Assembly: GCA_963666835.2 (NCBI GenBank) | Contig: CAXXGO010000001.1 | Coordinates: forward strand, 1,440,001 to 1,504,000 | Origin: Phycisphaerae bacterium | GTDB taxonomy: Bacteria > Planctomycetota > Phycisphaerae > UBA1845 | DNA: 64,000 nt | Reading direction: 5' to 3' | Shown here: piece by piece, positions 30,090 to 52,529 of the stretch | Layout of the letters: each line of letters begins with the position of its first letter | How positions within the stretch are numbered: the first letter of the stretch is position 1 | Notes under the pieces: model-generated | The model's input: the letters and a program-made list of their open reading frames with translations, nothing else | What the model was told of the DNA's origin: nothing | The model's database searches: none | Made by a program: the position numbers and the translations under genes

Positions 30090-30572
30090 TCACCCCTCCG
30101 GTCTCTCAGCTTCGTCATACTGGGATAACACTAGCTCCTCAAGAAGGTCGAGTCGGCTCTCGAGCATGTCGGCATATTCTCTGGTGGCCGGCGCGTTGAC
30201 CGGGATTATTTCATCGTCAATGGACCGCCCTTCATGGACCGCCTCGACCCACCGCCGCATCTCGCGGATGTAACTTCTGAGCGCCGATGGCGGATCGGGA
30301 CTCAAGTCGCAGACCAGGTATGCCGGCGGCAAATCACCCGTAACCACCCACAGCCAATCATCGACGTCAGGATGCCCCGGTGAGATTTCGAAGAGAAAGA
30401 CTCCGAGAATCCCCTCGTTGCCCAAGCCGAAGTACCCGTTCCTTATCGACTTGCACCATCGCTTCGAAAGAAGAAACTGCTCCGCCCGGTCGGCGAATTG
30501 ACCAAGGCTATAGTCATCTTCCGGATCTCCCCTGTCCATGGCAGAGATGGGTGTAAGTACTTCGATGTTCAT
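30090..30572 (-). CDS. putative immunity protein (DUF4826-like)
   Basis: WLWVVTGDLPPAYL motif. Last gene of the toxin/immunity string, overlapping the upstream stop. Confidence 0.55.
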   Translation of the reverse strand: MNIEVLTPISAMDRGDPEDDYSLGQFADRAEQFLLSKRWCKSIRNGYFGLGNEGILGVFLFEISPGHPDVDDWLWVVTGDLPPAYLVCDLSPDPPSALRSYIREMRRWVEAVHEGRSIDDEIIPVNAPATREYADMLESRLDLLEELVLSQYDEAERPEG

Positions 30573-31210: not shown

Positions 31211-31423
31211 GACGGCTACCTGACGCCTCCTGTCACGCGGCAAGTGAATCCCAGTTCGCCGGGATCGCACTCGTTTGTGTCCTCAAGCGGATATTCCGTT
31301 GAATCATTGCCTCGCTGTTACGTCGCCAACGAGGTTTGAGGCGGACATACTTGCTGAACAGCCACCGCAAAGCGAGACCCCAGATGCCGGCTCCAAGGCA
31401 GCGTTTTTGAGCGAATGGCCCCG

Positions 31424-31903
31424 TTACGGAGCCACACTGAGTTTCAGCGATGGGATATCTTCATACTCCTTGATCTTCGATATTACCACCGATGCGAGCT
31501 CACCGGATCTGATTTGTATCTCCTCGAACTCCGTATCATATCCTTCTGTCAAGAACAGCAAGATCGCTTCGACGCCGGGTTGCCGGAGCACCCGCGAAAT
31601 CCACCCCTCAATCCTCCGAAAGTTGTCGAATATGACCGCAGGAGCATTATTATATGGAGAGATAAGGGTGTCCGAAGTGTCCTCCATTGGAGACGCCGTA
31701 ATCAGGAATGGGGTGGCTGTCGTGTTCGTGATACCGAACTTGAGGAGCATTTCAGCCACGTTGTCCTGTTTGATGTTATAAGACAACATGACATGAACTC
31801 CGAGATCCAAGCCAGTCCTTGTCGAGCGCCAGCAGGCGCTTTCGAGGACGGAATCGGTGGTGTTGCCGGAGTATAGTATCTGTCCGAAAGCGAAGTAACT
31901 CAT
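31424..31903 (-). CDS. cognate immunity candidate for orphan toxin 31900-32723
   Basis: ATGA overlap with the toxin stop; visibly AT-richer than the backbone. Confidence 0.7.
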   Translation of the reverse strand: MSYFAFGQILYSGNTTDSVLESACWRSTRTGLDLGVHVMLSYNIKQDNVAEMLLKFGITNTTATPFLITASPMEDTSDTLISPYNNAPAVIFDNFRRIEGWISRVLRQPGVEAILLFLTEGYDTEFEEIQIRSGELASVVISKIKEYEDIPSLKLSVAP

Positions 31904-32723
31904 GCCGGGTATCCATTTGAAGTTGTTGGGGAATCGTCATACCCCGAAGAAAGTGGGGTTGTTTCCTCCGGGGTTATTGGGCGGCCTTGATCGTCGAATC
32001 TCCTGTTATGTTCATGTGGCCGAATTCTGTTGTGTGTATGGTCGAAGTCCTGTCTACTGAATGGATGACCGTTCTCATCGTAGAAGGTCCTGGATCTTAC
32101 TCTCCCTTGGTCGTCCACTCGCTCATAGATCGAGTTGGGGAGCGATTTCTTCTTCGCACGTTTCGTTCCTTGCTCGACGGTGGTCTCTGCCGCCTTTGCC
32201 GCCTTCGCGGCGTCGGTTGCGTCATCCGCCAGGTCACCGACACGGGCGGCGATTGGCTTGCCGGTGGCCTTGTCCGCCCAGACGGTGATCTTGGTTCCGG
32301 CTTTGATGCCGAGTTTGGTCGCCACCTTCGCGGTGGCCTTTATCACCGAAACCGTTATCAGATCCGACGGGTCCGGGATATTGACTTCGATCAGCAGCAG
32401 CATCGCCGCGGCCGCGGGAGCCGAGTAGATCTTGACCTGCTCGCCGGCGGCCTGGACTTTGTCGAGACCCTGTATCTTCCTCCAACGGTATCCCTCTGCC
32501 GCGGCGAACGCGTCATCGTCAGTTGCACCGAACCCCAGCGGATCCAGCATCACCCACGGGTCGTTTCCGACGTACGAGTAGCCGTTGCCCAGTTCGAGCG
32601 GGTCGGTCCAGATTCCGATTCGGTCGCGGACGGTGAACCGACCGGCGATGGGGTCGACGTATCTCGTACGGTAATAGTATAACCCGGTCTCGGGGTCGAT
32701 GCGACGACCGGTGAACAAATACG
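31900..32723 (-). pseudogene. orphan Rhs core fragment + C-terminal toxin (Ntox24-like His-rich nuclease candidate)
   Basis: Similarity to the main Rhs starts at YLFTGRRIDPETG. PWVMLDPLG cleavage motif. CT is PNSIYER...TFYDENG..SRQDFDH.H...PHEH. Confidence 0.75.
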
Positions 32724-32752
32724 TTTCGGCCAGATGCTCTTCGTTTAGCGGG

Positions 32753-33352
32753 TCACACAACTGAGCCCCGGCGTTCATCTACGACCGGATTGAGTTCTTT
32801 CTGCGAAAGCAGTTCCTCCAATGCCTGCCCACCGTAATCCAACTTGTATTGAAGCTCCGAATCGGTTATTGGAATCATCCACAGAATATCGCTCTTATCT
32901 CCCAGGACCTCGAGCGTATCGAAGTCCTCTTCCTCGAAGTAGGGCGGTAAGAAGAAGGCACTCGTTAGAAGCGATCGTTCGGGGATCATGGACATCCCGT
33001 AAGGCACGGTATGCCACCAGTGCAGGAACGTATCATCTGCAAACGGCATATCCGCTAACAACTTCAGGAGGCGAAACATCCACGGTTGCGGTTCTCGTAC
33101 ATACATCACGAGCTCTGTGCGAGCTGATACATAGTCAGGCGCTTCTGCCGGGACAGACTGCCTGAGATCGCTCATGCCACCTGTTATCAACACCCAATGA
33201 TCGCGACTACCAGAAGGTGGAAACTGATAAACATCAATATGAGGGATCTTGTCATCAGTTGAGTGCATGATCGGCTCAGAGATTGAGCCAAAATGCTCTA
33301 CGTAGTGAGCCTCCCGGACAGCTATAGGGTGTTTGTTAGATACGGACATCAT
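32753..33352 (-). CDS. suppressor-of-fused (SUFU) domain immunity protein
   Basis: HY.EHFG...HIDVYQFPP...WVLITGGMS...RTELVM...WHT...IPIT.SEL. Confidence 0.8.
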   Translation of the reverse strand: MMSVSNKHPIAVREAHYVEHFGSISEPIMHSTDDKIPHIDVYQFPPSGSRDHWVLITGGMSDLRQSVPAEAPDYVSARTELVMYVREPQPWMFRLLKLLADMPFADDTFLHWWHTVPYGMSMIPERSLLTSAFFLPPYFEEEDFDTLEVLGDKSDILWMIPITDSELQYKLDYGGQALEELLSQKELNPVVDERRGSVV

Positions 33353-33368
33353 GCCGCGTATTGCCCTA

Positions 33369-33740
33369 TCATAGATCACCGGCACCGGACACCAGACGTA
33401 CCCTATCCAGCAAGTATGCTTCGATGCCGTCGGCCTCTACCGCCTTCTCGCCAATTGCAAGAAGCTGCAATTGGATACGTTCGCGAGATGATTCGATCTT
33501 GGGATCCAAATCATAGCAGAAGCTCAATCTGAAATTATGCACGCCGAAGCACCTCAAGAGGACAAGAGGGTGCTTCGGATCCAGTGTCTCCAGACTTATT
33601 TCGAGGTTACCCGGGCAGTTCCACGCATCGACCCCATGGCCGCACACGGATGCAGGCGACTCGAAGCGCGTGTACTTCACAAACGCGCGGTCCCAGTCGA
33701 CGCTGTCAAAAAGAGCTTGGACTTCCTTGGGGTCATGCAC
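33369..33740 (-). CDS. immunity paralog 3 (DW..A.VKY.RFESP family)
   Basis: Homologous to 33994-34419 and 34622-34990. GGAGG-7nt-GTG start. Confidence 0.7.
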   Translation of the reverse strand: MHDPKEVQALFDSVDWDRAFVKYTRFESPASVCGHGVDAWNCPGNLEISLETLDPKHPLVLLRCFGVHNFRLSFCYDLDPKIESSRERIQLQLLAIGEKAVEADGIEAYLLDRVRLVSGAGDL

Positions 33741-33993
33741 TGTCAATCCTCCGATAAGCGGCACTCGTGTTGTTGCCGGGGTCCAATCGGTCTGTCTCAT
33801 CTCGGTTAACGCGACCGTGACAAGCGACGGCTTGTCCTGCTCCGCGTCTCGTAAACTCTAAGCACCGTGCCCCCGACCGTCGCCTCTGCCTACCCGACCA
33901 AGCCGGTGTTCCCAATATGCGAAGGTGATGACCCGAGACCCGGAACGCCGGCATTGCGTAACCTCCGCAACCAGCTCGATTAGCAGGCTTGGG

Positions 33994-34419
33994 CTATCCG
34001 GCCTCAGGACGTTTCGTTGTCGGTCCGTACGGCTTTCGGTTCGACCATCGCAGATTACCGGTGGCTGATTCAAGATGCCTTTCACTCAGCGCATACACCT
34101 CGACGGCTTCAGCCTCTATCACCGTGTTGCCGGCCCCTAGAAGCCACAAACGGATACGTCCTCCAGTGGACTCAATCCTCGGATGCAAATCGTGGAGGAG
34201 GCTCAAGCCGCACTCATATACGTCACGGCACCTCAGCAGAAGAAGCGGGGTCTTCGAATCCGTCGTTTCGAGAGCTACTTCCAAGTTGCCGAGGCATTCG
34301 AATGCGAAGATCCCAGAGTCATGCACCGCCGTGGGCGACTCGAATCGCATGTACTTCACGATTGCGTTTCTCCAGTCGATGCGGTTAAGAAGAGCTCGAA
34401 CTTCGTCGATGTCACGCAC
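33994..34419 (-). CDS. immunity paralog 2 (DW..A.VKY.RFESP family)
   Basis: IDWRNAIVKYMRFESP...LLLLRC...PRIESTGGR. Same RBS/GTG context as paralog 3. Confidence 0.7.
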   Translation of the reverse strand: MRDIDEVRALLNRIDWRNAIVKYMRFESPTAVHDSGIFAFECLGNLEVALETTDSKTPLLLLRCRDVYECGLSLLHDLHPRIESTGGRIRLWLLGAGNTVIEAEAVEVYALSERHLESATGNLRWSNRKPYGPTTKRPEAG

Positions 34420-34621
34420 AGTCAACTCTCCAAACATCCTTTCCCGAAGTATTGCCCAACTCCACTGGGGCGGTACGGGTCCCAGGCCGGTCGCGGATGG
34501 CGAGCCACCCGGTAACCGAAGGCAACCATCGTATACGCACTTCATACGCTGCCCCGGCCGCCTTGGCAAGGCTGTAGAGCGTCTTCAGCCCGCTGGCGGG
34601 TGCCTTCGACGGGTCGCCCGA

Positions 34622-34990
34622 TTATCGCGAATCACCGGATTCAGAAGGCGCTTCCCGGGGGGCGTATACTTCGACTTCTTCAGCCTCTACCGTCATTCCT
34701 CCACCCTCGACAAGGCATAAACGGACACGTCCTCCGGATGACTCAATCCTAGGTTCCAGATCAAGGCATGGCGACACGCTGAATTCGTACACTCGCAAGC
34801 ACCTCAATAGAAGAAGCCGGTGCTCGGGATACAGTATCTCCAAGGCGATCTCCAGGTCGCCGGTACGATCGGGCGCGTCAATCATGTGCCCGTACAGTGA
34901 CGTAGGCGACTCAAACCGTACATACTTCACAAACGCATCGTCCCAGTCGATGCCGTCAAAAAGAGCTTGGACTTCCGTGAGGTTCAGCAT
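34622..34990 (-). CDS. immunity paralog 1, cognate candidate for toxin 34984-37077
   Basis: Start overlaps the toxin stop. IDWDDAFVKYVRFESP...LLLLRC...PRIESSGGR. Confidence 0.75.
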   Translation of the reverse strand: MLNLTEVQALFDGIDWDDAFVKYVRFESPTSLYGHMIDAPDRTGDLEIALEILYPEHRLLLLRCLRVYEFSVSPCLDLEPRIESSGGRVRLCLVEGGGMTVEAEEVEVYAPREAPSESGDSR

Positions 34991-37077
34991 GGCCAATTAA
35001 TCGTCCCAATAGGGTCATGATTACCACTGCGCTGTGCGTCTGGACGAGGATGCTGGGAGTCGTAGTCCGAGTCATGTTGGTGCGGGTGCCTGCGCCCAGT
35101 ACCATGTAAGTCGTCATACTGTTTATGTCTGTTTCCATGTTTGTCGTAGGTCGTAACCTGTTTCGTTCGGCCATCTTTCGTGTACCGGCGGCGAGTGGAA
35201 TAGGGCGAGCTTTGATCCGGAGCACGTTTTTTCCAATACTTCTCGTATCTCTTCGCCTCGTCAGGCGACATATCATCCACAAACGTTCTCACCCGTTTAC
35301 TTGCGTTCTCAACACCCTCCTCTGCTCCTTCCTTGGCGCCCTTAATAAACGTCTTGACGCCCTGCTTGCTGATCGCTTTGGCAGCACCGGCGACGCCGAT
35401 GGCCGTTCCGGCGGCGGTTATGATCCCGCCGGCTGTTGACGCGGCTGCGTCACGGTTGTCGGAGTCGAAGGTCGTTCCGCCGACGGAATCAATCAACCCG
35501 GCGGTGACCTCGCTGGCGATCGCGTCCGCCGTGCCGTGGGTGCGGTCCGAGTTGCTTCTGGCGAACTCGTCCAGGGCCGCGTCGTAAACGCCCTCCGGCG
35601 GATCCCAGTAGCCGGTTATAAACCAGTCGAGCGGCCCGAGCCCGTACGGATCCAGCATCACCCACGGGTCGTTTCCGACGTACGAGTAGCCGTTGCCCAG
35701 TTCCAGTGGGTCGGTCCAGATTCCGATTCGGTCGCGGGTTGTGAACCGCCCGGCGATGGGGTCGAGGTACCTCGTACGGTAATAGTATAACCCGGTTTCA
35801 GGGTCGATGCGACGACCCGTGAACAGATACGGGTTGCCGATCGCCGAGACTTGCTGGTGCGTGGGCTGACCGTTGTGGTCGAGATACTCCGGACTGCCAA
35901 AGTCGCCGTATTCGTAACGTTCGACCACCACGCCGCTTGCGTCGGTCACGGCCACGACGTTGTACATGTCGTCGGTGTGGAAGAAGTAGTCCTCGGGCGT
36001 GCCGTCGCCGTTGACGTCCCGACGCATACTCAACACTTCATCGATGTAATCCCCGTAGACGTACGTAGCCAGGGTTGCCCCGGTCTCGTCCTGCTCTTCG
36101 ATAACCCGCCAGCCGTCGTAGAAGTAGCGGACCTCCTTCCGATGCGCTCCGAGCGCGTCGGTGATCTTCGCAATCCTCCGGCCGAGAGCGTCGTAGAGGT
36201 ACCGGTGCGTCTGCCCGGTGCGGAGGTCCTCGTACCGCACCATCTGATTGTGGAAATCGTACGTCAGTAAGGCGCGCATGCTCGGGCAGGTTGCCCCGGC
36301 GGATGACGAAGCGGCGGCTGCCTCTCCGCACGGTGCCGCGGGCGTGCCGGGGTCGTAAGGGTACGGCTCGCCGCCGAAGGCCTGGACGAGGAGCAGAACG
36401 TCGGACATGTTGACGACGCGGTTGGGCCCCTCGTTATGCACATCCACCCATTCATCCGGCGGGGCGATGGGGTCGTTTGCGAACGCCTGCATACAGGCCA
36501 TCAGGTCGTTCATGCTCAGGTTGCCCTCGGGTGCCATCCATTGGCCCTCGACGAACGACCCGACGCAGTCACCCCAGAACTTCACTCCGGGCCTGGCACA
36601 GGTGTTGACTTCGAACGGCTCAGAGATGCTGATCTCGTTGTACGCCCGGATCTCGAAGGTCGATTCCGGACCGATCGCGCAGTCGTAAACGTGAATGACC
36701 GGCTCATCCCAGACGCGGATCACCGGCGTCGAGCCCAGCGGGTAATAGCCGTCGACGGCCCCGTCGTCGCCGTCGTTGCCGACCCACTTGACCATCCCGA
36801 CGGCGTCGGGGAAGTAGGTGTTCGCGGTCATCTCGACCCGAAACGCCACCGGCTCATCCGCGTTCTGCGGATCGAACGACAGATACCGGTTCTTCGGCGC
36901 ATCATCCGGCGGGGCCGGCGAAGCAGGCGGCTCGACCGTCGGCGCAATCATGGCCGTGAGGTTGCCGTGCAGATCATAGATCCGCGCATCAAACGGCGTG
37001 AGCGTATACTGATTACTCTGACAATCACCCGGCTCGGGTAGCGTGGGGTCACAGGAATAGGACCCCCCGCACGCGTC
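34984..37077 (-). pseudogene. orphan Rhs module: dockerin-like insert + Rhs core + alternative toxin (Ntox24-like)
   Basis: 35375-37077 duplicates 42796-44498 (offset 7421). Unique CT is QVTTYDKHGNRHKQYD..H....HPHQH. In-frame ATG at 36951. Confidence 0.85.
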
Positions 37078-37080
37078 GCG

Positions 37081-37178
37081 CGGTATGGGTCAACTTGTTG
37101 ACCCGTGCTGTGCCATGACGCGGGCACTATCGCGCATCATCGTCTCCCCCACCTCCATAGGAGGTGGGCCACCCGTCC
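37081..37178. repeat. two REP-like palindromes at the orphan-module junction
   Basis: GGTATGGGTCAACTTGTTGACCCGTGC (37082-37108) and CCCACCTCC-ATA-GGAGGTGGG-CCACCC (37148-37174). Confidence 0.6.
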
Positions 37179-37264: not shown

Positions 37265-37861
37265 CTATTCCAATGGGGCCTTCAACCACAGCAGATAAGT
37301 GTCCTCCTCAAGACTCGAGACGAAGAGGCCGACGGTTTCCTCCACAATGATCCGCACGTGTTGCTCCGTGAGAATGTCGGCAATCGGCGGAAAGTCCGAG
37401 CGCCCCAGAGCAAGGGTGAGTATTCCGACCTCGATAACGGCGCGACCGGCCTCGTTCAGGACGGTCTCTATTCGAGGGACTCCGCAGTCGTCATTGCGGA
37501 GCAGATGACATACTTCGTTCCGGTATGTTACCGTTCGGCTGGTGTAAGTTAATACGCCAGGGTCATTCGCGCGCGCCGCCAAGTTCTCTACGACAACCAA
37601 TCGTGTGTCATCCTTGACAAGAAAGGCGTGAAGGTGGCATGCCAAGCAGGTCCGGTATGTGGCTGTAAACTCGGGCAGATCGCCAATGATGAGCTTCATG
37701 GCCCGATCATCCGGATGTCCGGTGGGAATCGTTGTGAGCACACCGTTGCGCAAATCAACCATGTCGCGCACGGCGTGGGTTAGCGAATGGCCCCAATCCA
37801 GCCATCGACCCAACGAGAAATCCGGATCAGTGCTGTCAAGATCGCCGTGATAGCCATCCAT
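37265..37861 (-). CDS. putative immunity protein, paralog of 37937-38548
   Basis: Shared pattern DL..G, RLV, EV, FPP...I.T..H.R.I.E.T..F.....YL.W. Confidence 0.65.
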   Translation of the reverse strand: MDGYHGDLDSTDPDFSLGRWLDWGHSLTHAVRDMVDLRNGVLTTIPTGHPDDRAMKLIIGDLPEFTATYRTCLACHLHAFLVKDDTRLVVVENLAARANDPGVLTYTSRTVTYRNEVCHLLRNDDCGVPRIETVLNEAGRAVIEVGILTLALGRSDFPPIADILTEQHVRIIVEETVGLFVSSLEEDTYLLWLKAPLE

Positions 37862-37936
37862 GTTAATGGCGTTCCTCCAATTGCAGTGTCGGCTCAGCCT
37901 TTCAAGCGTGCGACGCCGACGCGAGCGGGCGATATG

Positions 37937-38548
37937 TCAACCGCGACGCCAAATCAGGTAACCCTCCCCGTCGTACGCGCGGGCGAAAACACACTCGGTC
38001 TTCTCTGCTATCAACCGCAAATGCTCACGTGTCATAATCCTGTCAGGCGGTGGAAACCCGGGAACTCCGGGCTGATTCGTCATAACGCCAACCAGCCCTG
38101 CCCCGGCATCAGCATCCGCCAGGATTACCTGGACTCGCAGTTCGTCATGTTCCTCTCCGAGCATCGCGTCGTCGCGCGATATTACCCGGTATACTTCGTC
38201 TTGGAACGTCAGAACCTGACCCAGCAACCGGCATAGATCTGATTCAGTAGCCGTGAGCATGATGTCACTAATAAGCACGAGCCTCTGCTCGTCAACTTCA
38301 AGGTATTCACAGATTGCGTCGACCATGGCATTCTGGCTCCCACCCAGCGACTTCGGCAACCCGCACTTAATCCCATCGACCAACACGTCGTCGGCTGTGT
38401 CGGGTAGAGCTGTGCCGATTCGCCCCGCCGATAGATCGTTGGACTTGAGGACTTCGTGCCCCAGCGCCCCACCAGGCCGACCCGTCAGCGCTTCCCGCAC
38501 GAAGTCCAAGGCCTGCGCCGCCAGGGGCTGCTCGGGTTCATGTTCCAT
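37937..38548 (-). CDS. putative immunity protein (C-terminal AYDGEGYLIW)
   Basis: AAGGAGG RBS; paralog of 37265-37861; Rhs locus context. Confidence 0.7.
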   Translation of the reverse strand: MEHEPEQPLAAQALDFVREALTGRPGGALGHEVLKSNDLSAGRIGTALPDTADDVLVDGIKCGLPKSLGGSQNAMVDAICEYLEVDEQRLVLISDIMLTATESDLCRLLGQVLTFQDEVYRVISRDDAMLGEEHDELRVQVILADADAGAGLVGVMTNQPGVPGFPPPDRIMTREHLRLIAEKTECVFARAYDGEGYLIWRRG

Positions 38549-39029: not shown

Positions 39030-40135
39030 TCAGGCCCGGGGCATGGGCATCGGCGGGATCACCGCCGAGCCCCGTTTTCTGCTCCCGCCCTTCTTCCGTT
39101 TCTTGTATCCGCGCCGCCAGTCCTTCTTCGGCTTAACCTCCTGCTCACCATCGTCGCTCGGGTAGATGCGCCATTCCTTCCCTTTAGGGTCTTTATAATC
39201 ATAGTGGGGAGGGTCCCCGGGGTGGTTGAAGTCTGGATGGAGGTGCTCCTTCGTGTCCTTGTTGTACCACGCACCTTGCGAACTGCCCGGCTTGGTGCCT
39301 GGAGGGCGCCATTCCCAGTCAGGCCCAGGTGGTTCCGTCGGATCTGTAGGACATTTTGGCGCTTCGACCGGTTGATTCGGTTTCTCCGGTTTTTCTGGAT
39401 CGACCGGGATCGGCGGCGGCTTCGGCAGATCCGGGGGTGGCGGTTCGGGTGTATCCTGCGGTTTGTTGAGCTGTTGCTCCACGAGCTTCTTTGCGACGGC
39501 GGCATCAATACCAGCGGCTATCAGCCCACCTATTAATTCCGCCGCCGACTTTCCCATCGAGGCCTCAACCTCAACCCAGGCGATAATCCCCTCAGGATGC
39601 ATCGAGGATGAGAACAACCCGTACGGATCGAGAATGTCCCACGGTGCGTTACCGACGTACGAGTAGCCGTTGCCCAGTTCGAGCGGGTCGGTCCAGATTC
39701 CGATTCGGTCGCGGGTTGTGAACCGACCGGCGATGGGGTCGAGGTATCTCGTACGGTAATAGTATAACCCGGTTTCAGGGTCGATGCGACGACCCGTGAA
39801 CAGGTACGGGTTGCCGATCGCCGAGACTTGCTGGTACGTGGGCTGACCGTTGTGGTCGAGATACTCCGGACTGCCGAAGTCGCCGTATTCGTAGCGTTCG
39901 ACCACCACGCCGCTTGCGTTGGTCACGGCCACGACGTTGTACATGTCGTCGGTGTGGAAGAAGTAGTCCTCGGGCGTGCCGTCGCCGTCGACGTCCCGGC
40001 GCATACTCAACACTTCATCGATGTAATCCCCGTAGACGTACGTGGCCAGGGTCGCCCCGGTCTCGTCTTGTTCCTCGATAACCCGCCAGCCGTCGTAGAA
40101 GTAGCGGACCTCTTTGCGATGCACCCCGAGCGCGT
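39030..40135 (-). pseudogene. orphan Rhs core + Ntox37-like predicted RNase toxin
   Basis: Core is near-identical to the main Rhs from HRKEVRYFYDGW. PWDILDPYGL. CT is PPGPDWEWR..G..GS.QGAWYN....E.LHPD.NH....PHYDY, matching my recollection of the Ntox37 signature. Confidence 0.8.
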
Positions 40136-40207
40136 TCTAAAGGAGATGGCATACCCGCCCAAGAACGGCGAGGTTGGACCCTCGAAGGACGAAACGGCGC
40201 GGCGGTG

Positions 40208-40708
40208 CTACGCGTTCTTCTTACTTAGAATTCCCGACAGATCCGCCATTTCGCCGTGGTAGTAGTATGCGAGCGATTCTGGCAGGCAGACTACGAGGCT
40301 GCTTCCGACTTCCTCATCGGGCAAGACTCGAATAACCTCCTCCAAGGACCCGAATCGTCCGTCCCAAGCGCGAGACTCTGATAACACATAGCAATCCTCG
40401 GGCGCTCCGAGACCTGACAATGCCGTCAGCAACTCTTCGCCGGGCTCGCTCGCGCGATACTCTACGTTCTCTTGGCCCAACGCAAGCCAGTGCTCCAGAC
40501 CGGCGAGCATGGAACGGAACTTCCCCCGGCGCTTCATACTCTTCCGGTCGAGCTTCGGAGGCAACTGGCGATCGGCGGCCAGACTAATGAACCTGTCGCG
40601 TCTCTCCGGCAGAATGAAGGACCTGGCGAACCGCTCTTCATAGTCCCTCTGGCTGGCGGCAACGTCGCTCACTCTCGAATCTCGCGGCTGATGCGCTTCG
40701 CTATTCAC
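40208..40708 (-). CDS. orphan immunity-like protein
   Basis: GTG start overlaps the TGA of a short basic remnant (...RGRWEKKKRK*). EERF..SFI...RRDRF...PEDCYVLS...LAYY.GE. Confidence 0.6.
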   Translation of the reverse strand: MNSEAHQPRDSRVSDVAASQRDYEERFARSFILPERRDRFISLAADRQLPPKLDRKSMKRRGKFRSMLAGLEHWLALGQENVEYRASEPGEELLTALSGLGAPEDCYVLSESRAWDGRFGSLEEVIRVLPDEEVGSSLVVCLPESLAYYYHGEMADLSGILSKKNA

Positions 40709-40798
40709 TTCCTCTTTTTCTTCTCCCATCTGCCTCGGCATTTGCGGGGCCGTCGCGCCCGACGCGCGCCCGGGCTTCTGGACGCAAGATAGAGAGGC

Positions 40799-41260
40799 TC
40801 AAGTTTCGGGTATCGCCAGCGCTGTTCTCAGTTTCAGGCTGACCAATGCACCGCGCGACTCGGGCGACCGCACGTACTTTGCGACGCCGTCCAACGTGGC
40901 GAAGAGCTGGATTAGCGGCTCAACCGAATCGGCGAAGACGATACCGACGATTCGCCGGCGATCCTCATCAGTTAGTTGGTCGTTCTCTAAATCGAAGCAT
41001 GTTTGAAACACCTCCGCATCACCGCGAACCTCATCGATTCGTACGCGAACATCGCACTGATGTTCCTTCGGCGATTCCGGCGGGTCGAGCAGTTTCGGCG
41101 CAACCGCTACGTTCAGGTAATACTGCTCGCCCCACTGGGATCTCTGAAGGTCGACGACTATGATCGTGTCGTCGGTCTTTCTTCGCCAACATAGCCGTTT
41201 CTTGGAGAAGCTCTGTGCCTTCAGCGACGCGGCCAACGTACTCTCTAGGATGTTATGCAT
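40799..41260 (-). CDS. DUF4304-like immunity protein
   Basis: LK..SF.KK...W.R......VV.LQRSQWG..YY.NV. Starts 2 nt after the toxin stop. Confidence 0.75.
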   Translation of the reverse strand: MHNILESTLAASLKAQSFSKKRLCWRRKTDDTIIVVDLQRSQWGEQYYLNVAVAPKLLDPPESPKEHQCDVRVRIDEVRGDAEVFQTCFDLENDQLTDEDRRRIVGIVFADSVEPLIQLFATLDGVAKYVRSPESRGALVSLKLRTALAIPET

Positions 41261-41262
41261 GG

Positions 41263-42033
41263 TCAGGCGCCCAGGTCGTAGGTTTCGACTTCCCATGTCC
41301 ACACCCCGCCGTGTTCTTGCTGGAATTCCTCTGCGTAACCCTGCGCTTGTTTCTCGCCACGCCTGATGGCTCGTGGGTTATTTGGTTTGAGCTCTTTGAC
41401 ATGACGCCTGCGCAGATTGGCTGCATCGGCTCGTTTGCCGCTTGGTGTACGCGCCTCTTTCGTATATCCAGGACCTGGTCGGTAGTTCTTGTGCTCATGT
41501 TGTCCCCTCTTGAGAGCTTCCTTTACTTTGGGGATCCTGGCGCCTTTTAACGCCTTTGCCGCCTTCGCCGCGTCTCCTGCGTCGATGGCGCCGGCGGCTG
41601 CCTTGGCGGTGCCTTTTATGAGGCCTCCGCCCACCTTGGCGATTCCGCCGGCGATGGCCTTGCCGCCGCCGGTTATGGCAAAATCGGCGGCGGTTATGAT
41701 CCCGCCGGCTGTTGACGCGGCTGCGTCACGGTTGCCGGAGTCGAACGCCGTTCCGCCGACGGAATCGATCAGGCCGCCGGTGACCTCGCTGACGATCGCG
41801 TCCGCCGTGCCGTGGGTGCGGTCCGAGTTGCTTCTGGCGAACTCGTCCAAGGCCGCATCGTAAACGCCCTCCGGCGGATCCCAGTAGCCGGTTATAAGCC
41901 AGTCGAGCGGCCCGAGCCCGTACGGATCCAGCATCACCCACGGGTCGTTTCCGACGTACGAGTAGCCGTTGCCCAGTTCGAGCGGGTCGGTCCAGATTCC
42001 GATTCGGTCGCGGACGGTGAACCGGCCGGCGAT
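41263..42033 (-). pseudogene. orphan Rhs core tip + PD-(D/E)xK nuclease toxin (Tox-REase-9-like)
   Basis: No upstream start. Begins IAGRFTVRDRIG 3 nt after the immunity stop. CT is H..Y...KE...PSGKRADA.....VKELKPNN..AI..G.KQ..GY. Confidence 0.8.
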
Positions 42034-42036
42034 AGT

Positions 42037-42375
42037 TCAGGATACGTTTAGGTCTCCGAAATAGACTCCGTAGAAATCGTTTTCCGAGTCATCGATGATT
42101 TTCATCACGCGCCAATCCACTTCATCGCCTTCGTAACCCTTGTTTCGCGATGATGTATATCCTTTCGGAAGAAGCGAAGAATCGCCGAACACAATCTTCC
42201 CCAGCATCATCTCAGGCGGCATGTCGATATGGATAGGAGACTCAAGAAGTATTTGGTGCTCCTCGCCGTTAAGTACATCGATGCGTACGGATAGGACAAG
42301 CCTATTGTTATTGTATTCAACGACTCGAAGAAGTGAGTCGTCGGCGTCATCCGCAAGCACGTCTGTCAGGTCCAT
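42037..42375 (-). CDS. cognate immunity candidate of the full-length Rhs
   Basis: 112 aa, acidic. Overlaps the Rhs stop; AGGAGG RBS lies inside the Rhs 3' end. Confidence 0.8.
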   Translation of the reverse strand: MDLTDVLADDADDSLLRVVEYNNNRLVLSVRIDVLNGEEHQILLESPIHIDMPPEMMLGKIVFGDSSLLPKGYTSSRNKGYEGDEVDWRVMKIIDDSENDFYGVYFGDLNVS

Positions 42376-45300
42376 GTCTGTCCTCCTAGTAATAGGTCGG
42401 AGCCCGGAGGTAAGTGTGGATCCCCGCCTCCAGGTGGAGGCACATGTCGGTCAATGTCTCTATTGCCGGGGCCGTGTGGCCTGTTGTGATGATAATGGGG
42501 ACCCTCTCGGTAGGGATTGCGTGGGAAGTTGGGATTGGTGTGCGGATGACCGGGGTGATACTCATATATTTTCTTTCCGTAGATCGGCCTGCCCTTTGGG
42601 TCGAGACCTTTGAATTCGCGCCATGTGTGCTTCCCATTGGAGCCTTTCACTCGCTGCAGGCCTCGTGGTTTGAAGTTCTTCGGATTGTGAGGAAATGTCT
42701 TATGTCTCCGGGTTTTCTTCGTTGCCGTTTTTGCTGCCTTTTTTGTTTCTTCCTTCGCACCTTTAATGAACGCCTTCGCGCCCTGTTTGCCAATTGCTTT
42801 GGCAGCACCGGCGACGCCGATGGCCGTTCCGGCGGCGGTTATGATCCCGCCGGCTGTTGACGCGGCTGCGTCACGGTTGTCGGAGTCGAAGGTCGTTCCG
42901 CCGACGGAATCAATCAACCCGGCGGTGACCTCGCTGGCGATCGCGTCCGCCGTGCCGTGGGTGCGGTCCGAGTTGCTTCTGGCGAACTCGTCCAGGGCCG
43001 CGTCGTAAACGCCCTCCGGCGGATCCCAGTAGCCGGTTATAAACCAGTCGAGCGGCCCGAGCCCGTACGGATCCAGCATCACCCACGGGTCGTTTCCGAC
43101 GTACGAGTAGCCGTTGCCCAGTTCCAGTGGGTCGGTCCAGATTCCGATTCGGTCGCGGGTTGTGAACCGCCCGGCGATGGGGTCGAGGTACCTCGTACGG
43201 TAATAGTATAACCCGGTTTCAGGGTCGATGCGACGACCCGTGAACAGATACGGGTTGCCGATCGCCGAGACTTGCTGGTGCGTGGGCTGACCGTTGTGGT
43301 CGAGATACTCCGGACTGCCAAAGTCGCCGTATTCGTAACGTTCGACCACCACGCCGCTTGCGTCGGTCACGGCCACGACGTTGTACATGTCGTCGGTGTG
43401 GAAGAAGTAGTCCTCGGGCGTGCCGTCGCCGTTGACGTCCCGACGCATACTCAACACTTCATCGATGTAATCCCCGTAGACGTACGTAGCCAGGGTTGCC
43501 CCGGTCTCGTCCTGCTCTTCGATAACCCGCCAGCCGTCGTAGAAGTAGCGGACCTCCTTCCGATGCGCTCCGAGCGCGTCGGTGATCTTCGCAATCCTCC
43601 GGCCGAGAGCGTCGTAGAGGTACCGGTGCGTCTGCCCGGTGCGGAGGTCCTCGTACCGCACCATCTGATTGTGGAAATCGTACGTCAGTAAGGCGCGCAT
43701 GCTCGGGCAGGTTGCCCCGGCGGATGACGAAGCGGCGGCTGCCTCTCCGCACGGTGCCGCGGGCGTGCCGGGGTCGTAAGGGTACGGCTCGCCGCCGAAG
43801 GCCTGGACGAGGAGCAGAACGTCGGACATGTTGACGACGCGGTTGGGCCCCTCGTTATGCACATCCACCCATTCATCCGGCGGGGCGATGGGGTCGTTTG
43901 CGAACGCCTGCATACAGGCCATCAGGTCGTTCATGCTCATGTTGCCCTCGGGTGCCATCCACTGGCCCTCGACGAACGACCCGACGCAGTCACCCCAGAA
44001 CTTCACTCCGGGCCTGGCACAGGTGTTGACTTCAAACGGCTCGGAGATGCTGATCTCGTTGTACGCCCGGATCTCGAAGGTCGACTCCGGACCGATCGCG
44101 CAGTCGTAGACGTGAATGACCGGCTCATCCCAGACGCGGATCACCGGCGTCGAGCCCAGCGGGTAATAGCCGTCGACGGCCCCGTCGTCGCCGTCGTTGC
44201 CGACCCACTTGACCATCCCGACGGCGTCGGGGAAGTAGGTGTTCGCGGTCATCTCGACCCGAAACGCCACCGGCTCACCCGCGTTCTGCGGATCGAACGA
44301 CAGATACCGGTTCTTCGGCGCATCATCCGGCGCGGCCGGCGAGGCAGGCGGCTCGACAGTCGGCGCGATTATAGCCGTGAGGTTGCCGTGGAGATCGTAG
44401 AACCGCGCGTCAAGCGGCGTGAGCGTATACTGATTACTCTGACAATCACCCGGCTCGGGTAGCGTAGGGTCACAGGAATAGGCCCCGCCGCACGCGTCCC
44501 CGGTAACGGCCGACCGATTACCCACCCCGTCAAGAGAGAACTCGGTCTCCCGAACGACGCTGGGCAGGGGGGTACTTACGTCAACACCTCGCAGGCGATC
44601 GAGGGCATCGTAGGCGAGATCGTGCGTATACTGACGACCGCCGGACCGGACGTCTTTCCGCTGCCTTTTGTTGCCGGCCTGATCCCACGTGAACGTCCGC
44701 TCATCGACGATCCCCCCGGTCGGCGTCCACGAGTGCTTGGCGCGGACGATCTGCTTGACGCCGAAGTCGTCGGCCGGATTGGGTACTCCGATTATGCCGT
44801 CGTACTCGAAGTCGCTCTGCGTGCCGTTTCGGAAGGTCCGGCGCTCGAGCCGGTCGAAGCCTATGTAGTCGTGAACGGCAAGTTCTCCGAACTCGTCCGC
44901 AACGCTATTCAGGCGGTCGAGTTCGTCGAACGTAGCCGTGATGGTCCTCCCGCCGGGGTATACGATCGACTGCCGGTTACGCATCCCGTCGTGGGTCGCG
45001 GTGCGCGTTCCGCTGGTCTGGAACCCACCCGCATCAATTGTCAGGGTTTCGTCGACGACGTTCCCAAGCGAGTCAAACGTCCGGGTGACAACGGAATCGT
45101 CATCCTCGGCGTGAACGAGTCGGGAAAGCCCGTCGTAACGGTAAACCTCTACCGTGGTATCGTCCGACACCCCCGGCCCGGGAGTGATTTCGGCGCGGAC
45201 GAGTCGGTTAACCAGGTCGCGCGTAAGAGCCACCGTACTGCCGGAGGCGTACGTGCGAAGGACCGTTCTGCTGAAGACGTCGTATCCGGGGGTGAAGGAA

Positions 45301-48300
45301 CTTAAGTCCGGCTCGGCTTGCCCCAAAGGCCAGACCGCTCCGGAGCCGATCTGGTGAACCGTGCCGTCGGCCATCTGTACGGCGAACTGGCGGTTGAGCG
45401 CGTCAAACGCATAACGGGTGGTGTTCCCGGCGTCATCGGTTCTGGCCGTCAGGCGTGACGAGTCGTCCCAGGTCTGGCCGATGACGATGTCGTCGCCGTT
45501 CCCGTCGGCTCCGTCGCCGTCGAGGTCGTGAATCATCTCCACGAGGCGATCCAACCCATCGAACCGGTAGCGCGACTCATGATCCAGGCCGTCGACCAGC
45601 CGGGTCAGGTTGTAGCGCGAATCGTAGAACTCGTGAATCGTGCTGCCGGATTCGTCAGTGACGCCGGTCAGCCGATCGAGATTGTCGTAGCTGTATGTGG
45701 TCAGGAACGGCTGGTCACTCTCGCCGAGATCAGACTTATCCAACTCGGTGAGACTCGTGACGTTAGAGTTGGCGTCGTAACCGAAGGTGGTTGTGCTTCC
45801 CTTGGCGTCGGTGATGACCTCCAGGCGGCCGGCGGTGTCGTAGCCGGCCTGGCCGATGTGCCCGTTGTCATCCTCGACCGCGATGAGGTTCCAGTCTTCG
45901 TCATAGCAGAACAACCGCGTCGCGAGTCCGTCGCCGATGTCGTCCCCTTCGGGATCGAAGAAGTCGGTGTTGATGCGGACCAGCCGGTCCACCTCGTCGT
46001 AAACGAACGACCTGCTCAGGAGCAGGGAGTTGCTGCCGGAGACACCCTCGATTCGTTCGCCGTAGACCCTCGCCGAGGTTGGGTTACCGTTATCGTCGTA
46101 GACTATCTCCGCAGTGTTGCCCTCGGGGTCGCTGATGTCGGTGAGGCGACCGTACGGGTCGTACGAGAAGTCGTGAACGTGCGGGACGCCCTCCAAACCG
46201 GTGATGACGCGGATCGGGTCTTTGTCGACGTTGAAGTCGATTCGGGCGCTGGATTGCTCCGAATCGCCCTCGGCCCGCACGAAGCGAAGCGGTAGCCCGC
46301 GCTCGTCGTGGTAAAGCCGCAGGGTGTTGTTCGGCTGACGCCCTTCGACCGCTTCGCCCAGGCGGACAAGCGTTTTTTGGCCGTTCTTGTTGTATTCATA
46401 CTCCGTAAAGACGAACTCGGATTCCGGCAGGCCGTCGCACGACGGCTGGTCCGGCGTTCCCGGAATCGCCCCGGTGTAGCTGCCGGTTTCTCCGCACACC
46501 CGCGTTACACGATCGAGGGCGTTATGTTCGAAGATCGTCGTGAAGTGCGTGTTCGGTTGGATAACGCCTTCGTCATCGATGTTCTGCACGTCGATGCGCA
46601 CAAGGTTGTTGTTCGCATCGTAGAACACGTCGGTTTGGTAGTAGACGCCGCTTCCGTCGGAGACTTCGGCAGAGATCTCCCGAACCACCTGGTCCAACTC
46701 GTTGACGATATACTCGGTGCTGTGCTGACGCGGGTCCGTCACTCGGGTGACGTTGCCGGCGCCATCGTATTCATAGCACGTAGCCAACCCCAGATTGTCC
46801 GCGTCGACCGTAACGCAGTGCAGATACCCGTTCATGGGGCCGCTGTCGTGATAGGTCAAGGTATCGACGCGACCGGTCGGGCCCACATAGCGCTGAAGTT
46901 GCCCGAAGCTGTTGTACTCCCATGAGTGCTCGATAGTCTGGGTGCCGCCGCCGCAAACTCCGACTGTAACCGGGGGAAGCGTAGTGTGCGTGCGGTCTCC
47001 CGTTGCCGGATCGTAATCGTGCGTGGTCAGGTTCCCCCGGCGATCCCAGTAATGGGTGACGAATTGCGAGCCGCCACCTCGACCGCCGCCGAATCCGTCC
47101 AAGTACTCGAAGCGTTCAACGATCGGATCGTCAGTGATCACGGGTTCATACGTTCGGCTCAGTACGTTGCCCCGGGCACGGGGGTTCTCGTTGTCCTGAT
47201 CGAATTCGGTAAGAACGGAGCTGCCCTCCGAATGGCGAGTGTAGGGGGCTTGCGAGTGGGCGTTCCAGACGTTCCAAGTGTCGTAGTACGAGAGATCGGT
47301 GTCGCGCAGCCGGATGCCCGGGCGGTTGTCAGTCAGCGTGGTCGGTAGGGTGGGATCTGCCCGGCCGGTATACTCACGCCTAAGGGTCATCCGGTGCCCC
47401 GCGTCGAAATACTGATGCTCGACGTTGCCCATCCGGTCGTTGATGATCGTGAGCGTCGAGGCCAGCCCGTTGGTGTAATCCGGGGTCTGGGGTATGTAGA
47501 CGTAGCTGATGATGTCTCCGTCGAGGTTCTCTTGAATCACGCGGTCGACGCTCGAACTGCCCGTGTCGTTGTCGTAGGTCGTTATCGAGTATTCCTGCCC
47601 CTTCCCGTCGAAGATCGAGATCAGGTTGTGGTTAAGCCGGTCGTCGGCGAAGCCAGTCGAGTAGGTGTAGCCGACGATCTTGCCGATCGGGAAGTCGTTC
47701 CCGGTCGGTGTTCCGGTAACGGTGGGCGAGATGACCGCGGCCAGATCCCCGTAGGAGCCGCTGGCATGCCCGTCCGGGTAGTATTCGTATTGCACCTGGC
47801 GGCCGAGGAAGTCCGTTACACTCTGCAGAAACCCGTTGCAGTTGTAGGCGAACGTGATCTGCCGACCGAGAGTATCGAGCACGGAAACCAGCCGTCCCGT
47901 TGCGGGGTCGTACGTGAAGGTCATCTCATTGCCGTGGCGGTCCGCCATCGCGATGATCTTCCCCGCGGTCGGTGATCCGTTTAACGGAGCGAACGTCCAT
48001 AGATCGCCGTCGTCGTGATGCATGACGAAAGTACCGTTCGTCTCGTGTACGATTATCGCGAAGTACTCATTGCGTTCGTACCAGTCTTTGACGTGATTGA
48101 GTTGAAAGACGTCGCGACGATGATCGCCGGCGTAGAAAGTCAGCTCGCTGCCGCCTTCTATCGCCACGCGCATGTTGTACGACATATCCCAGTTGTTGCC
48201 TTGCACAGTCTGGGTCTCGGCGCGGCTTCGATAGGTCCGGCGCAGGACGAAATCGAGCCCCCGTCCTGGGATGTACAGGTCCTCTACCTCCTCGACCCGC

Positions 48301-49133
48301 TCTCCGGAGGAATGATATACACCCGAGATCTGCTCGTTTCCGCGCGGGGGGTCGCCGTCACAATCCTCTCGCTGACTGCAGTCAACCGGAGCGGGGCAGG
48401 CCATCGTGTCGCAAGATGATCCATCCCCTTGGTAGTTTCCGCCGTTTGCATCGCACCACGAGCCTGACGCGCTCTCGCAAGTGCCGTCCGGCATGCAGCA
48501 CGCGCCTCCGCAGGGCGAGTCGAGACATGTGACATAGGGGTGATACTCGCCGCCTCCTTCCTCGCAGGCCACTTCGGGGACCCCGCTTCTGCACTCCGTC
48601 GGGTAGCAGCAAGAGCCCTGGCTGCACGGCGTTGCGGCGCAACTTGGCACTGGGTTGTCTCCGACACCAAGCCAACGACCTCCTTCTTCCTCGCAAAGGG
48701 GGCGGTTCATTTGCACGCATGTCTTTCGACAGCCGCGATACCCGGCGCAGGGCTCATCGGTCTGTTGGTCACAAGACTGGGACAGGTCCGACACGCATCG
48801 ATCCACGCAACAAGCCATCGGAAAGCACGCCGCCAGGGCATCGCCTTCGCAGAAGGTGTTGTCGCCCAGGTACGCTCCGGCCGCGGCGCAGTCGGCTTCG
48901 CTCATCTCCGCACAACTGTAGTCCGGCAGGCAGCAGGCTCCCGTGACCTCTCGTGTGCCGGCGACGTTCGTGTCCGCCGGGGCGGCTACGGCCGGGTCGA
49001 TCTTACCGCCGGCCTCTGCTGTCGATTCAGAGATAATGCCGCCGGTCTCGCCCGGCGAGACCACGGCCTGCCCGAACCACGTTGAGCCACAGAACCACAG
49101 GAACATAAGCAGACAGGTGCTTTGAAATGCCAT
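42366..49133 (-). CDS. Rhs/YD-repeat polymorphic toxin with signal peptide, Cys-rich repeats, DUF6531-like segment, dockerin-like insert and His-rich CT
   Basis: 2255 aa, AAGGAG RBS. Hydrophobic N-terminus ending GQA, four GACC-type repeats, EDLYIPGRGLDFVLRRTYRS and many YD repeats. Core is NPYLFTGRRIDPETGLYYYRTRYLDP...PWVMLDPYGL. Confidence 0.95.
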   Translation of the reverse strand: MAFQSTCLLMFLWFCGSTWFGQAVVSPGETGGIISESTAEAGGKIDPAVAAPADTNVAGTREVTGACCLPDYSCAEMSEADCAAAGAYLGDNTFCEGDALAACFPMACCVDRCVSDLSQSCDQQTDEPCAGYRGCRKTCVQMNRPLCEEEGGRWLGVGDNPVPSCAATPCSQGSCCYPTECRSGVPEVACEEGGGEYHPYVTCLDSPCGGACCMPDGTCESASGSWCDANGGNYQGDGSSCDTMACPAPVDCSQREDCDGDPPRGNEQISGVYHSSGERVEEVEDLYIPGRGLDFVLRRTYRSRAETQTVQGNNWDMSYNMRVAIEGGSELTFYAGDHRRDVFQLNHVKDWYERNEYFAIIVHETNGTFVMHHDDGDLWTFAPLNGSPTAGKIIAMADRHGNEMTFTYDPATGRLVSVLDTLGRQITFAYNCNGFLQSVTDFLGRQVQYEYYPDGHASGSYGDLAAVISPTVTGTPTGNDFPIGKIVGYTYSTGFADDRLNHNLISIFDGKGQEYSITTYDNDTGSSSVDRVIQENLDGDIISYVYIPQTPDYTNGLASTLTIINDRMGNVEHQYFDAGHRMTLRREYTGRADPTLPTTLTDNRPGIRLRDTDLSYYDTWNVWNAHSQAPYTRHSEGSSVLTEFDQDNENPRARGNVLSRTYEPVITDDPIVERFEYLDGFGGGRGGGSQFVTHYWDRRGNLTTHDYDPATGDRTHTTLPPVTVGVCGGGTQTIEHSWEYNSFGQLQRYVGPTGRVDTLTYHDSGPMNGYLHCVTVDADNLGLATCYEYDGAGNVTRVTDPRQHSTEYIVNELDQVVREISAEVSDGSGVYYQTDVFYDANNNLVRIDVQNIDDEGVIQPNTHFTTIFEHNALDRVTRVCGETGSYTGAIPGTPDQPSCDGLPESEFVFTEYEYNKNGQKTLVRLGEAVEGRQPNNTLRLYHDERGLPLRFVRAEGDSEQSSARIDFNVDKDPIRVITGLEGVPHVHDFSYDPYGRLTDISDPEGNTAEIVYDDNGNPTSARVYGERIEGVSGSNSLLLSRSFVYDEVDRLVRINTDFFDPEGDDIGDGLATRLFCYDEDWNLIAVEDDNGHIGQAGYDTAGRLEVITDAKGSTTTFGYDANSNVTSLTELDKSDLGESDQPFLTTYSYDNLDRLTGVTDESGSTIHEFYDSRYNLTRLVDGLDHESRYRFDGLDRLVEMIHDLDGDGADGNGDDIVIGQTWDDSSRLTARTDDAGNTTRYAFDALNRQFAVQMADGTVHQIGSGAVWPLGQAEPDLSSFTPGYDVFSRTVLRTYASGSTVALTRDLVNRLVRAEITPGPGVSDDTTVEVYRYDGLSRLVHAEDDDSVVTRTFDSLGNVVDETLTIDAGGFQTSGTRTATHDGMRNRQSIVYPGGRTITATFDELDRLNSVADEFGELAVHDYIGFDRLERRTFRNGTQSDFEYDGIIGVPNPADDFGVKQIVRAKHSWTPTGGIVDERTFTWDQAGNKRQRKDVRSGGRQYTHDLAYDALDRLRGVDVSTPLPSVVRETEFSLDGVGNRSAVTGDACGGAYSCDPTLPEPGDCQSNQYTLTPLDARFYDLHGNLTAIIAPTVEPPASPAAPDDAPKNRYLSFDPQNAGEPVAFRVEMTANTYFPDAVGMVKWVGNDGDDGAVDGYYPLGSTPVIRVWDEPVIHVYDCAIGPESTFEIRAYNEISISEPFEVNTCARPGVKFWGDCVGSFVEGQWMAPEGNMSMNDLMACMQAFANDPIAPPDEWVDVHNEGPNRVVNMSDVLLLVQAFGGEPYPYDPGTPAAPCGEAAAASSSAGATCPSMRALLTYDFHNQMVRYEDLRTGQTHRYLYDALGRRIAKITDALGAHRKEVRYFYDGWRVIEEQDETGATLATYVYGDYIDEVLSMRRDVNGDGTPEDYFFHTDDMYNVVAVTDASGVVVERYEYGDFGSPEYLDHNGQPTHQQVSAIGNPYLFTGRRIDPETGLYYYRTRYLDPIAGRFTTRDRIGIWTDPLELGNGYSYVGNDPWVMLDPYGLGPLDWFITGYWDPPEGVYDAALDEFARSNSDRTHGTADAIASEVTAGLIDSVGGTTFDSDNRDAAASTAGGIITAAGTAIGVAGAAKAIGKQGAKAFIKGAKEETKKAAKTATKKTRRHKTFPHNPKNFKPRGLQRVKGSNGKHTWREFKGLDPKGRPIYGKKIYEYHPGHPHTNPNFPRNPYREGPHYHHNRPHGPGNRDIDRHVPPPGGGDPHLPPGSDLLLGGQTWT

Positions 49134-51879: not shown

Positions 51880-51894
51880 TGCCGAGGAGCGGGT

Positions 51895-52509: not shown

Positions 52510-52529
52510 CACAACCGCGGGAGGATCGA

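Follow-up and report, generated by a model that had tools for sequence, protein, structure and literature searches.

A predicted dockerin-fold module in a shell turn of an Rhs toxin from a Phycisphaerae bacterium

How Rhs toxins are displayed and delivered in diderm bacteria without parts of a type VI secretion system (T6SS) or a toxin complex (Tc) is an open question. It is raised here by one gene in a 64,000-nt stretch of a Phycisphaerae genome (assembly GCA_963666835.2, contig CAXXGO010000001.1, positions 1,440,001 to 1,504,000), hereafter the window. The gene, an open reading frame (ORF) at 42366-49133 on the minus strand with an AAGGAG ribosome-binding site directly 5′ of its ATG, translates into an Rhs protein of 2,255 amino acids (aa). 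A hydrophobic segment (aa 1–23) is followed by a linker, four Cys-rich repeats, DUF6531, RHS repeats, an insert, the Rhs core and a tip. Pfam and NCBIfam matches bear out the order of DUF6531, YD repeats and core that an initial annotation had read from the sequence without database searches, and the marks of the Rhs family (DUF6531, YD repeats and the Rhs-associated core) are all present. We lean, with modest confidence, towards this protein being a WapA-like polymorphic toxin of a diderm, in which the host's own cohesin–dockerin surface system takes the place of wall-binding repeats.

The insert (aa 1588–1815, 228 aa) is central to this proposal. A profile search found the same type of module in 67 ORFs of the genome, full-length in 59. 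An AlphaFold2 model built from the alignment of these 59 sequences (predicted local distance difference test score (pLDDT) 91) matches FN3 domains over residues 1–109 and dockerins over residues 115–188 in VIA comparisons, with dockerin superpositions on 5nrk_B (Z 6.2, root-mean-square deviation 2.3 over 60 aa) and 2ccl_B (Z 6.0). The sequence profile of the module matches the X-dockerin 4wi0_B (E 9e-4), and seven of its eight PDB matches are cellulosomal or dockerin chains. In the module alignment A1, D117, D138 and D173 are invariant and D159 is nearly so; the loops are non-canonical. No Pfam family covers the module, which has 4,072 matches among 50%-identity clusters, and Foldseek returned no match to the insert at E <= 0.001. 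Profile and model together point to a dockerin-fold module resembling X-module–dockerin pairs.

The initial annotation had described an insert of about 225 aa, dockerin-like and foreign. Its presence and its likeness to dockerins stand, but the insert is native to this genome. In 52 of the 59 full-length ORFs the module ends within 16 aa of the stop codon, and most carriers have a hydrophobic stretch close to their start. The copy in the Rhs shell is as intact as the C-terminal ones (E 5e-75) and clusters with five of the genome's C-terminal copies (support 100/99). Among 251 sampled genomes of the class, the module occurs in 5, all of the window's family; 5 more matches are to the Rhs flank only. 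The module could instead be a tag recognized by a secretion machine of the outer membrane, whether a type II secretion system (T2SS) or an unknown one, and not an anchor. The C-terminal position and conserved end of most copies, like those of sorting domains, and the T2SS of this genome would suit such a role, which we nevertheless find distinctly unlikely: the module also occurs N-terminally, internally and in tandem, its predicted fold is that of a dockerin and the same genomes encode cohesin-fold proteins. With 23 matches to a second, bare type of dockerin, the genome may contain two dockerin systems side by side.

Relatives of the Rhs protein show that the position of the insert has been filled repeatedly. 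A search with the first half of the shell gives 584 homologues at a threshold of E <= 1e-30; the best 120 were listed, and the 123 proteins analysed comprise the window's own, four found earlier and 118 new ones, and one of the set is a near-identical fragment of the window protein. A partly overlapping set of 80 genome loci, kept from 200, is labelled mainly Planctomycetota, Verrucomicrobiota and Acidobacteriota, and the window's family includes Phycisphaerae-labelled records. The Rhs relatives thus sit in Planctomycetes–Verrucomicrobia–Chlamydiae (PVC) bacteria and Acidobacteriota; in the class sample, this Rhs was found in 9 of the 251 genomes. The shell turn that holds the insert could be measured in 119 proteins and spans at most 15 aa in 95 of them, 60–80 aa in 18 and more than 200 aa in 4, with 2 mis-anchored (counts leave out negative gaps: 2 of 119; L136, L161 and L189). 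An insert of 644 aa apparent in L138 resulted from wrong anchoring and was not used. Sixteen of the 18 turns of 60–80 aa are bare dockerin-like pairs and the other 2 carry one slightly upstream; two turn inserts pass curated cut-offs, P0106 (Dockerin_1) and P0076 (dockerin_GC). One turn therefore accepts inserts of 60–290 aa, among them a family of FN3-like/dockerin modules that has no Pfam model. Dockerin-type modules were detected in 46 of the 123 relatives, a count to be discounted for the 16 bare turn inserts from which the dockerin hidden Markov model was built and which are included by construction; the reversed-sequence control gave 0 matches. The modules lie in the head in 24 proteins, in this turn in 20 and at other shell sites in 3, one protein having both head and turn modules. 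P0053 and P0124 carry the module of the window insert at another position in the shell, some 200 aa past the start of DUF6531.

On the shell tree (FastTree, midpoint root), the state of the turn requires 13 changes, at least 5 of them on starred branches, and the turn of the window protein's sister holds a dockerin of another type. A single clade of the five full modules found in this turn is rejected (approximately unbiased test, p 1e-7, on 35 selected rows with one long branch). The inserts of this turn are thus of several origins, that is, the turn has captured dockerins repeatedly. Where compared, the type captured mostly agrees with that of the host. The Rhs dockerin of genome G017 has at least 150 matches in its own genome and 0 in four other genomes, and that of G120 has 22 in its own genome versus 0–11 in others; the Rhs dockerin of G233 speaks against such matching, being a common type to which three genomes respond alike (26, 33 and 23 matches).

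The N terminus suggests export by a Sec-type route. The hydrophobic, signal-peptide-like start quoted in the initial annotation ([sequence]) is present, and by a hydrophobicity proxy, not SignalP, such starts occur in 94 of the 123 relatives versus 12 of 2,460 internal windows. A hidden N-terminal PAAR or VgrG domain, which would have spoken for another route, was not found by Pfam or NCBIfam, and the head is fully accounted for. As the initial annotation had noted, the window is also free of recognizable PAAR, VgrG, EagR/DcrB, Tc and WXG100 genes, with no Pfam match to these families among its 58 ORFs. The genome's PAAR protein matched none of the 123 proteins and none of the flanks of the 80 loci; VgrG matches in four relatives proved to be short snippets in the tips and not N-terminal VgrG domains. 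A lipoprotein signal can be dismissed, since Cys15 is replaced by Gly in the near-identical P0013. A degraded look-alike of the signal peptide and linker lies at C1:785323-785511, near a transposase-like gene.

The Cys-rich head, by contrast with its earlier description as a feature of the toxin, is not specific to it. The four repeats lie where they had been placed (48396-48941), starting at aa 65 (GACC), 106 (MACC), 173 (GSCC) and 210 (GACC), so that only two are literally GACC, and aa 63–260 contain 30 Cys. Because the repeat has 171 copies in 45 ORFs genome-wide, many of which end in the insert-type module or in IPTL-CTERM, it is a general part of the genome's secreted proteins and not a delivery device. 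Its neighbours in the ESM Atlas are unnamed, with a low recognition score. The heads of the Rhs relatives, about 30 to 2,000 aa long, differ widely and are unrelated to that of the window protein, in which Pfam finds no cell-wall-binding N-terminal domain.

The toxin had also been called T6SS-independent, which is not supported at the level of the genome: contig C6 encodes a T6SS with TssB/C/F/G/K/M, VgrG and PAAR. The Rhs protein might accordingly be a PAAR-less cargo effector of this system with a spurious signal peptide, like TseI, which the accessible text of PMC8765631 names as such an effector. We regard this as extremely unlikely, given the signal-peptide-like starts throughout the family and the 30-Cys head. 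PAAR and VgrG occur on C6 only, no vgrG, adaptor or EagR/DcrB chaperone is linked to the Rhs locus, and neither DcrB/EagR nor SpvB was found in this 92%-complete genome. TssC was found in 2 of 5 carrier genomes and not in 3 of the 5 (96–100% complete). A Tc complex finds no partner of the TcB (SpvB-domain) type in the same 92%-complete genome, TcA itself not having been searched.

T2SS and cohesin-like genes, which the initial annotation had suggested looking for, are both present. The genome has a gspD/E/F/G/L cluster and five secretins. Just downstream of that cluster, a different protein of 3,514 aa stands at the head of an Rhs-core orphan array; it is one member of a second giant family (3,263 and 3,514 aa) heading Rhs-core orphan cassettes at C6:364000-406000 and C5:41900-58400; each giant is preceded by a gene of 1,000–1,300 aa, and the C6 copy is the one directly downstream of the T2SS cluster. 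Just past the window, at C1:1505500-1518600, ORF content and one family match indicate a Tad-pilus-like cluster with a secretin.

Seven weak cohesin matches were found in the genome. The protein encoded at C1:2000520-2002022 (equal to L075:496-1998) starts with a hydrophobic segment, continues with two cohesin-like domains and ends in an IPTL-CTERM tail; it exceeds the Pfam cut-offs for Cohesin and IPTL-CTERM. Among the PDB sequences matched by its alignment, 27 of 28 contain cohesin, and the top fold matches of its model are all cohesins. Exosortase-family genes are present, and 47 ORFs of the genome fit the IPTL-type tail pattern. Comparable tandem cohesins with an IPTL-like tail occur in G209 (three cohesins) and G203 (two). 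The locus thereby names a specific candidate pair, an in-shell dockerin and an IPTL-CTERM cohesin, and the tethering by a lineage-specific module that had been proposed earlier gains support, the module being the insert. A family of proteins of about 900 aa has one cohesin and dockerin-like tails (C6:1291682-1294396, C1:736352-742063, C6:1713641-1716406 and C1:278905-281484) and possibly represents adaptor scaffoldins; one member comes directly after a gene whose module belongs to the subfamily nearest to the Rhs insert.

At the other end of the protein, the hallmarks of polymorphic toxins are present: variable tips, adjoining genes of immunity type (DUF4304 and SUFU) and orphan cassettes. The Rhs gene is followed on the same strand by a 112-aa gene that overlaps its stop, by four orphan cassettes that begin within the shell end or the core, and by about 12 small genes (Table 1). 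The C-terminal 230 aa of the Rhs protein form the tip. Its last domain recurs at the C terminus of a PT-HINT protein (70% identity) and of another Rhs protein (55%), has no Pfam family and has only unnamed neighbours in the ESM Atlas (best 0.89). From its His-rich motifs, which we take to resemble those of nucleases, and from the neighbouring tips, it is probably a nuclease. Over 1,758 bp, orphan 3 is 98% identical in DNA to 42749-44505 of the main gene. The locus is covered in its unique parts by contigs of two studies, which break at its repeats; none of the contig pieces listed bridges the junction of shell and insert, which recurs in the 98%-identical orphan copy. No well-supported tip-swap joint was found in four contig sets, and no RNA data set holding the locus was listed.

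Tips of some relatives are of another kind, containing pieces, in frame, of such conserved proteins as EF-Tu, HU, GroES, an RRM protein, VgrG and Hcp, often several of them joined by Gly/Ser linkers. They occur in P0058, P0060, P0067, P0081, P0088, P0107, P0114, P0117, P0122 and P0128 and at L145:2144-8314 and L174:2345-15355. BLAST against this genome finds them in 9 of 114 tips and Pfam adds P0117; some recur in independent assemblies, and we found no description of them in the literature searched. The tip of the relative at L124:4739-11182 ends in a long Trp-rich run. Upstream of the Rhs gene, at 51777-56372 of the window, five imperfect palindromes of about 100 bp (81–90% alike) alternate with small genes, some of which end in zinc ribbons, in a cassette-like layout; about five more near-full copies of the palindrome lie elsewhere on C1.

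Table 1. The Rhs gene and its downstream array, in positions of the window.
Feature	Position	Strand	Basis or remark
Signal-peptide-like segment, aa 1–23	49065..49133	-	Hydrophobic core aa 7–16; G/A at -3/-1; no basic n-region
Ala/Gly/Thr-rich linker, aa 24–62	48948..49064	-	Translation
Four Cys-rich GACC-type repeats	48384..48947	-	No Pfam family
DUF6531, aa 275–343, opening the Rhs shell	48105..48311	-	Pfam, E 2e-12
YD/RHS repeat shell	44373..48104	-	Pfam/NCBIfam matches
Insert part 1: predicted FN3/Ig-like beta-sandwich, X-module-like	44016..44339	-	AlphaFold2, pLDDT 91; VIA, Z ~6 to FN3 (middling)
Insert part 2: predicted dockerin-fold paired loop-helix repeats	43773..44000	-	VIA, 5nrk_B; profile, 4wi0_B; dockerin_GC E 0.069, under cut-off
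Rhs core with putative Asp dyad D1994/D2021 and PxxxxDPxGL at aa 2016–2025	43059..43688	-	Alignment; motif role according to the accessible text of PMC8765631
Pre-toxin region with Gly/Ala-rich hydrophobic helix	42705..43058	-	First part common to two orphans
His-rich mobile tip domain	42369..42704	-	No Pfam family
Putative cognate immunity gene, 112 aa, overlapping the Rhs stop, GC 0.48	42037..42375	-	Position only
Orphan 1: core end, pre-toxin region, Tox-REase-9	41263..42036	-	Pfam, over cut-off
DUF4304 gene (40799-41302) and small gene without family (40208-40741)	40208..41302	-	Pfam
Orphan 2: core and Ntox37-like tip	39030..40136	-	E 0.007, under cut-off
Two genes without family, in immunity position	37265..38548	-	ORF calls, Pfam
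Orphan 3: last shell repeats, whole insert, core, different tip without family	34984..37089	-	DNA comparison
Three paralogous small genes (34622-34996, 33994-34569, 33369-33800) and SUFU immunity-type gene (32753-33385)	32753..34996	-	Pfam, self-comparison
Orphan 4: core end and Ntox24-like tip	31900..32778	-	E 1e-4, under cut-off
Three more small genes, in immunity position; end of array	30090..31903	-	ORF calls, Pfam

These elements can be arranged into a course of events. Very probably, the signal peptide routes the Rhs protein through Sec. The protein would then fold in the periplasm, with the tip enclosed by the shell and cut after L2025, by analogy with RhsA: the core (Rhs_assc_core at aa 1955–2025) has D1994 and D2021 at the aligned positions of the dyad and an intact PxxxxDPxGL, and RhsA is described as requiring its Asp dyad to release its toxin (PMC8765631, accessible text). 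For crossing the outer membrane a T2SS would be the most likely vehicle, a step that we consider plausible but short of probable. The predicted FN3-like and dockerin module would occupy a permissive turn of the shell because the toxin occupies the C terminus, the usual place of the module. It would face outwards, since known Rhs cocoons enclose about 15–30 kDa according to the same source, too little for tip and insert together. There it could dock on a cohesin, somewhat likely in our estimate, with the protein at C1:2000520-2002022 as the best candidate. On contact, the tip, probably a nuclease, would enter a related cell. Recombination with the four orphan cassettes would exchange tips and the downstream genes would confer immunity, as their layout suggests.

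Several observations weigh against this course. In this genome, 481 of 1,212 long ORFs pass the same hydrophobicity proxy, the signal segment of the Rhs protein lacks a basic n-region and no secretion gene is linked to the window Rhs locus. The fold Z-scores of the module, near 6, are middling, though backed by the independent profile match to cellulosomal X-dockerins, and the insert falls under the curated cut-offs of Pfam Dockerin_1 and NCBIfam dockerin_GC (E 0.069). The pairing with the tandem cohesin is a candidate only, because the loci from the module-bearing genomes G056, G092 and G127 showed no tandem cohesin ending in an IPTL-like tail, and because G203 has the tandem cohesin but no module match; the other cohesin-like proteins of the window's genome are without a membrane tail. 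A small downstream gene accompanies 9 of 41 closed relatives and an orphan core 1 of 41 (ORFs below 80 aa not counted). Most relatives therefore do not resemble polymorphic-toxin loci, and the toxin role is clear for the window locus but not for the family.

No dockerin was detected in 77 of the 123 relatives, although detected dockerins are a lower bound, the Pfam dockerin of P0030 having been missed; the tag is therefore not required family-wide. This absence, the abundance of the domain and the permissive turn would all agree with a tolerated passenger, acquired by recombination and without a role for the toxin. We judge such a passenger very unlikely, because sizeable inserts at this turn are of dockerin type (in 20 proteins) and of several origins, and the insert has stayed as intact as its C-terminal counterparts. 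Moreover, among 45 complete genes of the genome loci, a dockerin is carried by 13 of 16 Phycisphaerae-labelled and 4 of 16 Verrucomicrobiota-labelled ones.

The dockerin could also act on the receiving side, as an address label by which a released toxin binds free cohesins on kin, with killing limited to cells of the same dockerin type. That the dockerin type follows the host lineage, that the module adjoins core and tip, and that an immunity array implies attack by kin are all in its favour. We think it unlikely: many further signal-peptide proteins of the producer end in this module, whose simpler role there is self-display, and a released toxin would first meet the producer's own cohesins. 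Returning to display on the producer, a wider version can be put forward tentatively, and we doubt it more than we believe it: PVC bacteria might possess a cohesin–dockerin delivery route for Rhs proteins, in which each lineage repeatedly grafts its own dockerin onto a Sec-exported shell, in the head or one permissive turn, the cohesin serves both for display and as receptor on kin, the dockerin type sets the target range and the shells can hold cargo other than toxins, for example the mosaic tips of relatives.

Sec-exported Rhs toxins are already known, and the initial annotation's suggestion of a poorly described or undescribed route is not supported. WapA/Rhs proteins of Bacillus subtilis and Streptococcus suis share the layout of the window protein: a signal peptide (putative in the window protein), a surface-binding part, a DUF6531-Rhs shell, a pre-toxin region with variable tip, and immunity genes (PMC12704120, accessible text). 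Unlike the host of WapA, the window's host is a diderm with an outer membrane; neither wall-binding repeats nor a sortase/SecF partner was seen, and the candidate anchor is the in-shell dockerin. Zhang et al. 2012 list export by signal peptide or T2SS together with RHS repeats, propose lineage-specific anchoring domains, and describe toxins of the MafB-N/MafA type, whose lineage-specific domain would bind a partner anchored at the surface (PMC3482391, accessible text). There the domain is N-terminal and toxin-specific, whereas the window domain is a genome-wide tag in a shell turn; the word 'dockerin' is absent from the accessible text of that paper. T6SS PAAR-Rhs effectors (RhsA, 7q97) share shell, core, Asp dyad and PxxxxDPxGL, but, unlike RhsA (PMC8765631), the window protein has a putative signal peptide instead of PAAR or EagR.

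Dockerins have been linked to other large or polymorphic proteins. Pandoomain mentions polymorphic PT-TG toxins with dockerin or cohesin domains in a sentence that, in the accessible text, names no Rhs shell insertion or mechanism (PMC13483458); the dockerin-type giant proteins of Omnitrophota belong to a different class (10.1101/2023.11.21.568195, accessible text). In the literature covered, outside which lie most subscription papers and supplements, no dockerin inside an Rhs shell was described; the supplements to Zhang 2012, Pandoomain and Andrei 2019 could be relevant here. It is the recurrent, host-matched graft of a dockerin into the shell that we did not find described.

Clostridial anchoring cohesins use an S-layer anchor. 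The X-module and type II dockerin of clostridial scaffoldins (PDB 4wi0, 4u3s, 2b59 and 5g5d) resemble the window module in joining a beta-sandwich to a dockerin, and the candidate partner likewise has a cohesin fold with a membrane-sorting tail. Unlike them, the window module lies under curated cut-offs, has an extended first loop and no Pfam family, carries a toxin as cargo and would be paired with an exosortase-type tail. Andrei et al. 2019 propose a cohesin–dockerin 'planctosome' for peptidases in Nemodlikiaceae (PMC6461901). Like it, the arrangement proposed here is a non-cellulosomal cohesin–dockerin surface complex in Planctomycetes; unlike it, the cargo is an Rhs toxin, where the accessible text on the planctosome has peptidases and a lamin-tail anchor and names no Rhs toxin. 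If our proposal is true, non-cellulosomal use of cohesin and dockerin in Planctomycetota extends from enzymes to interbacterial toxins.

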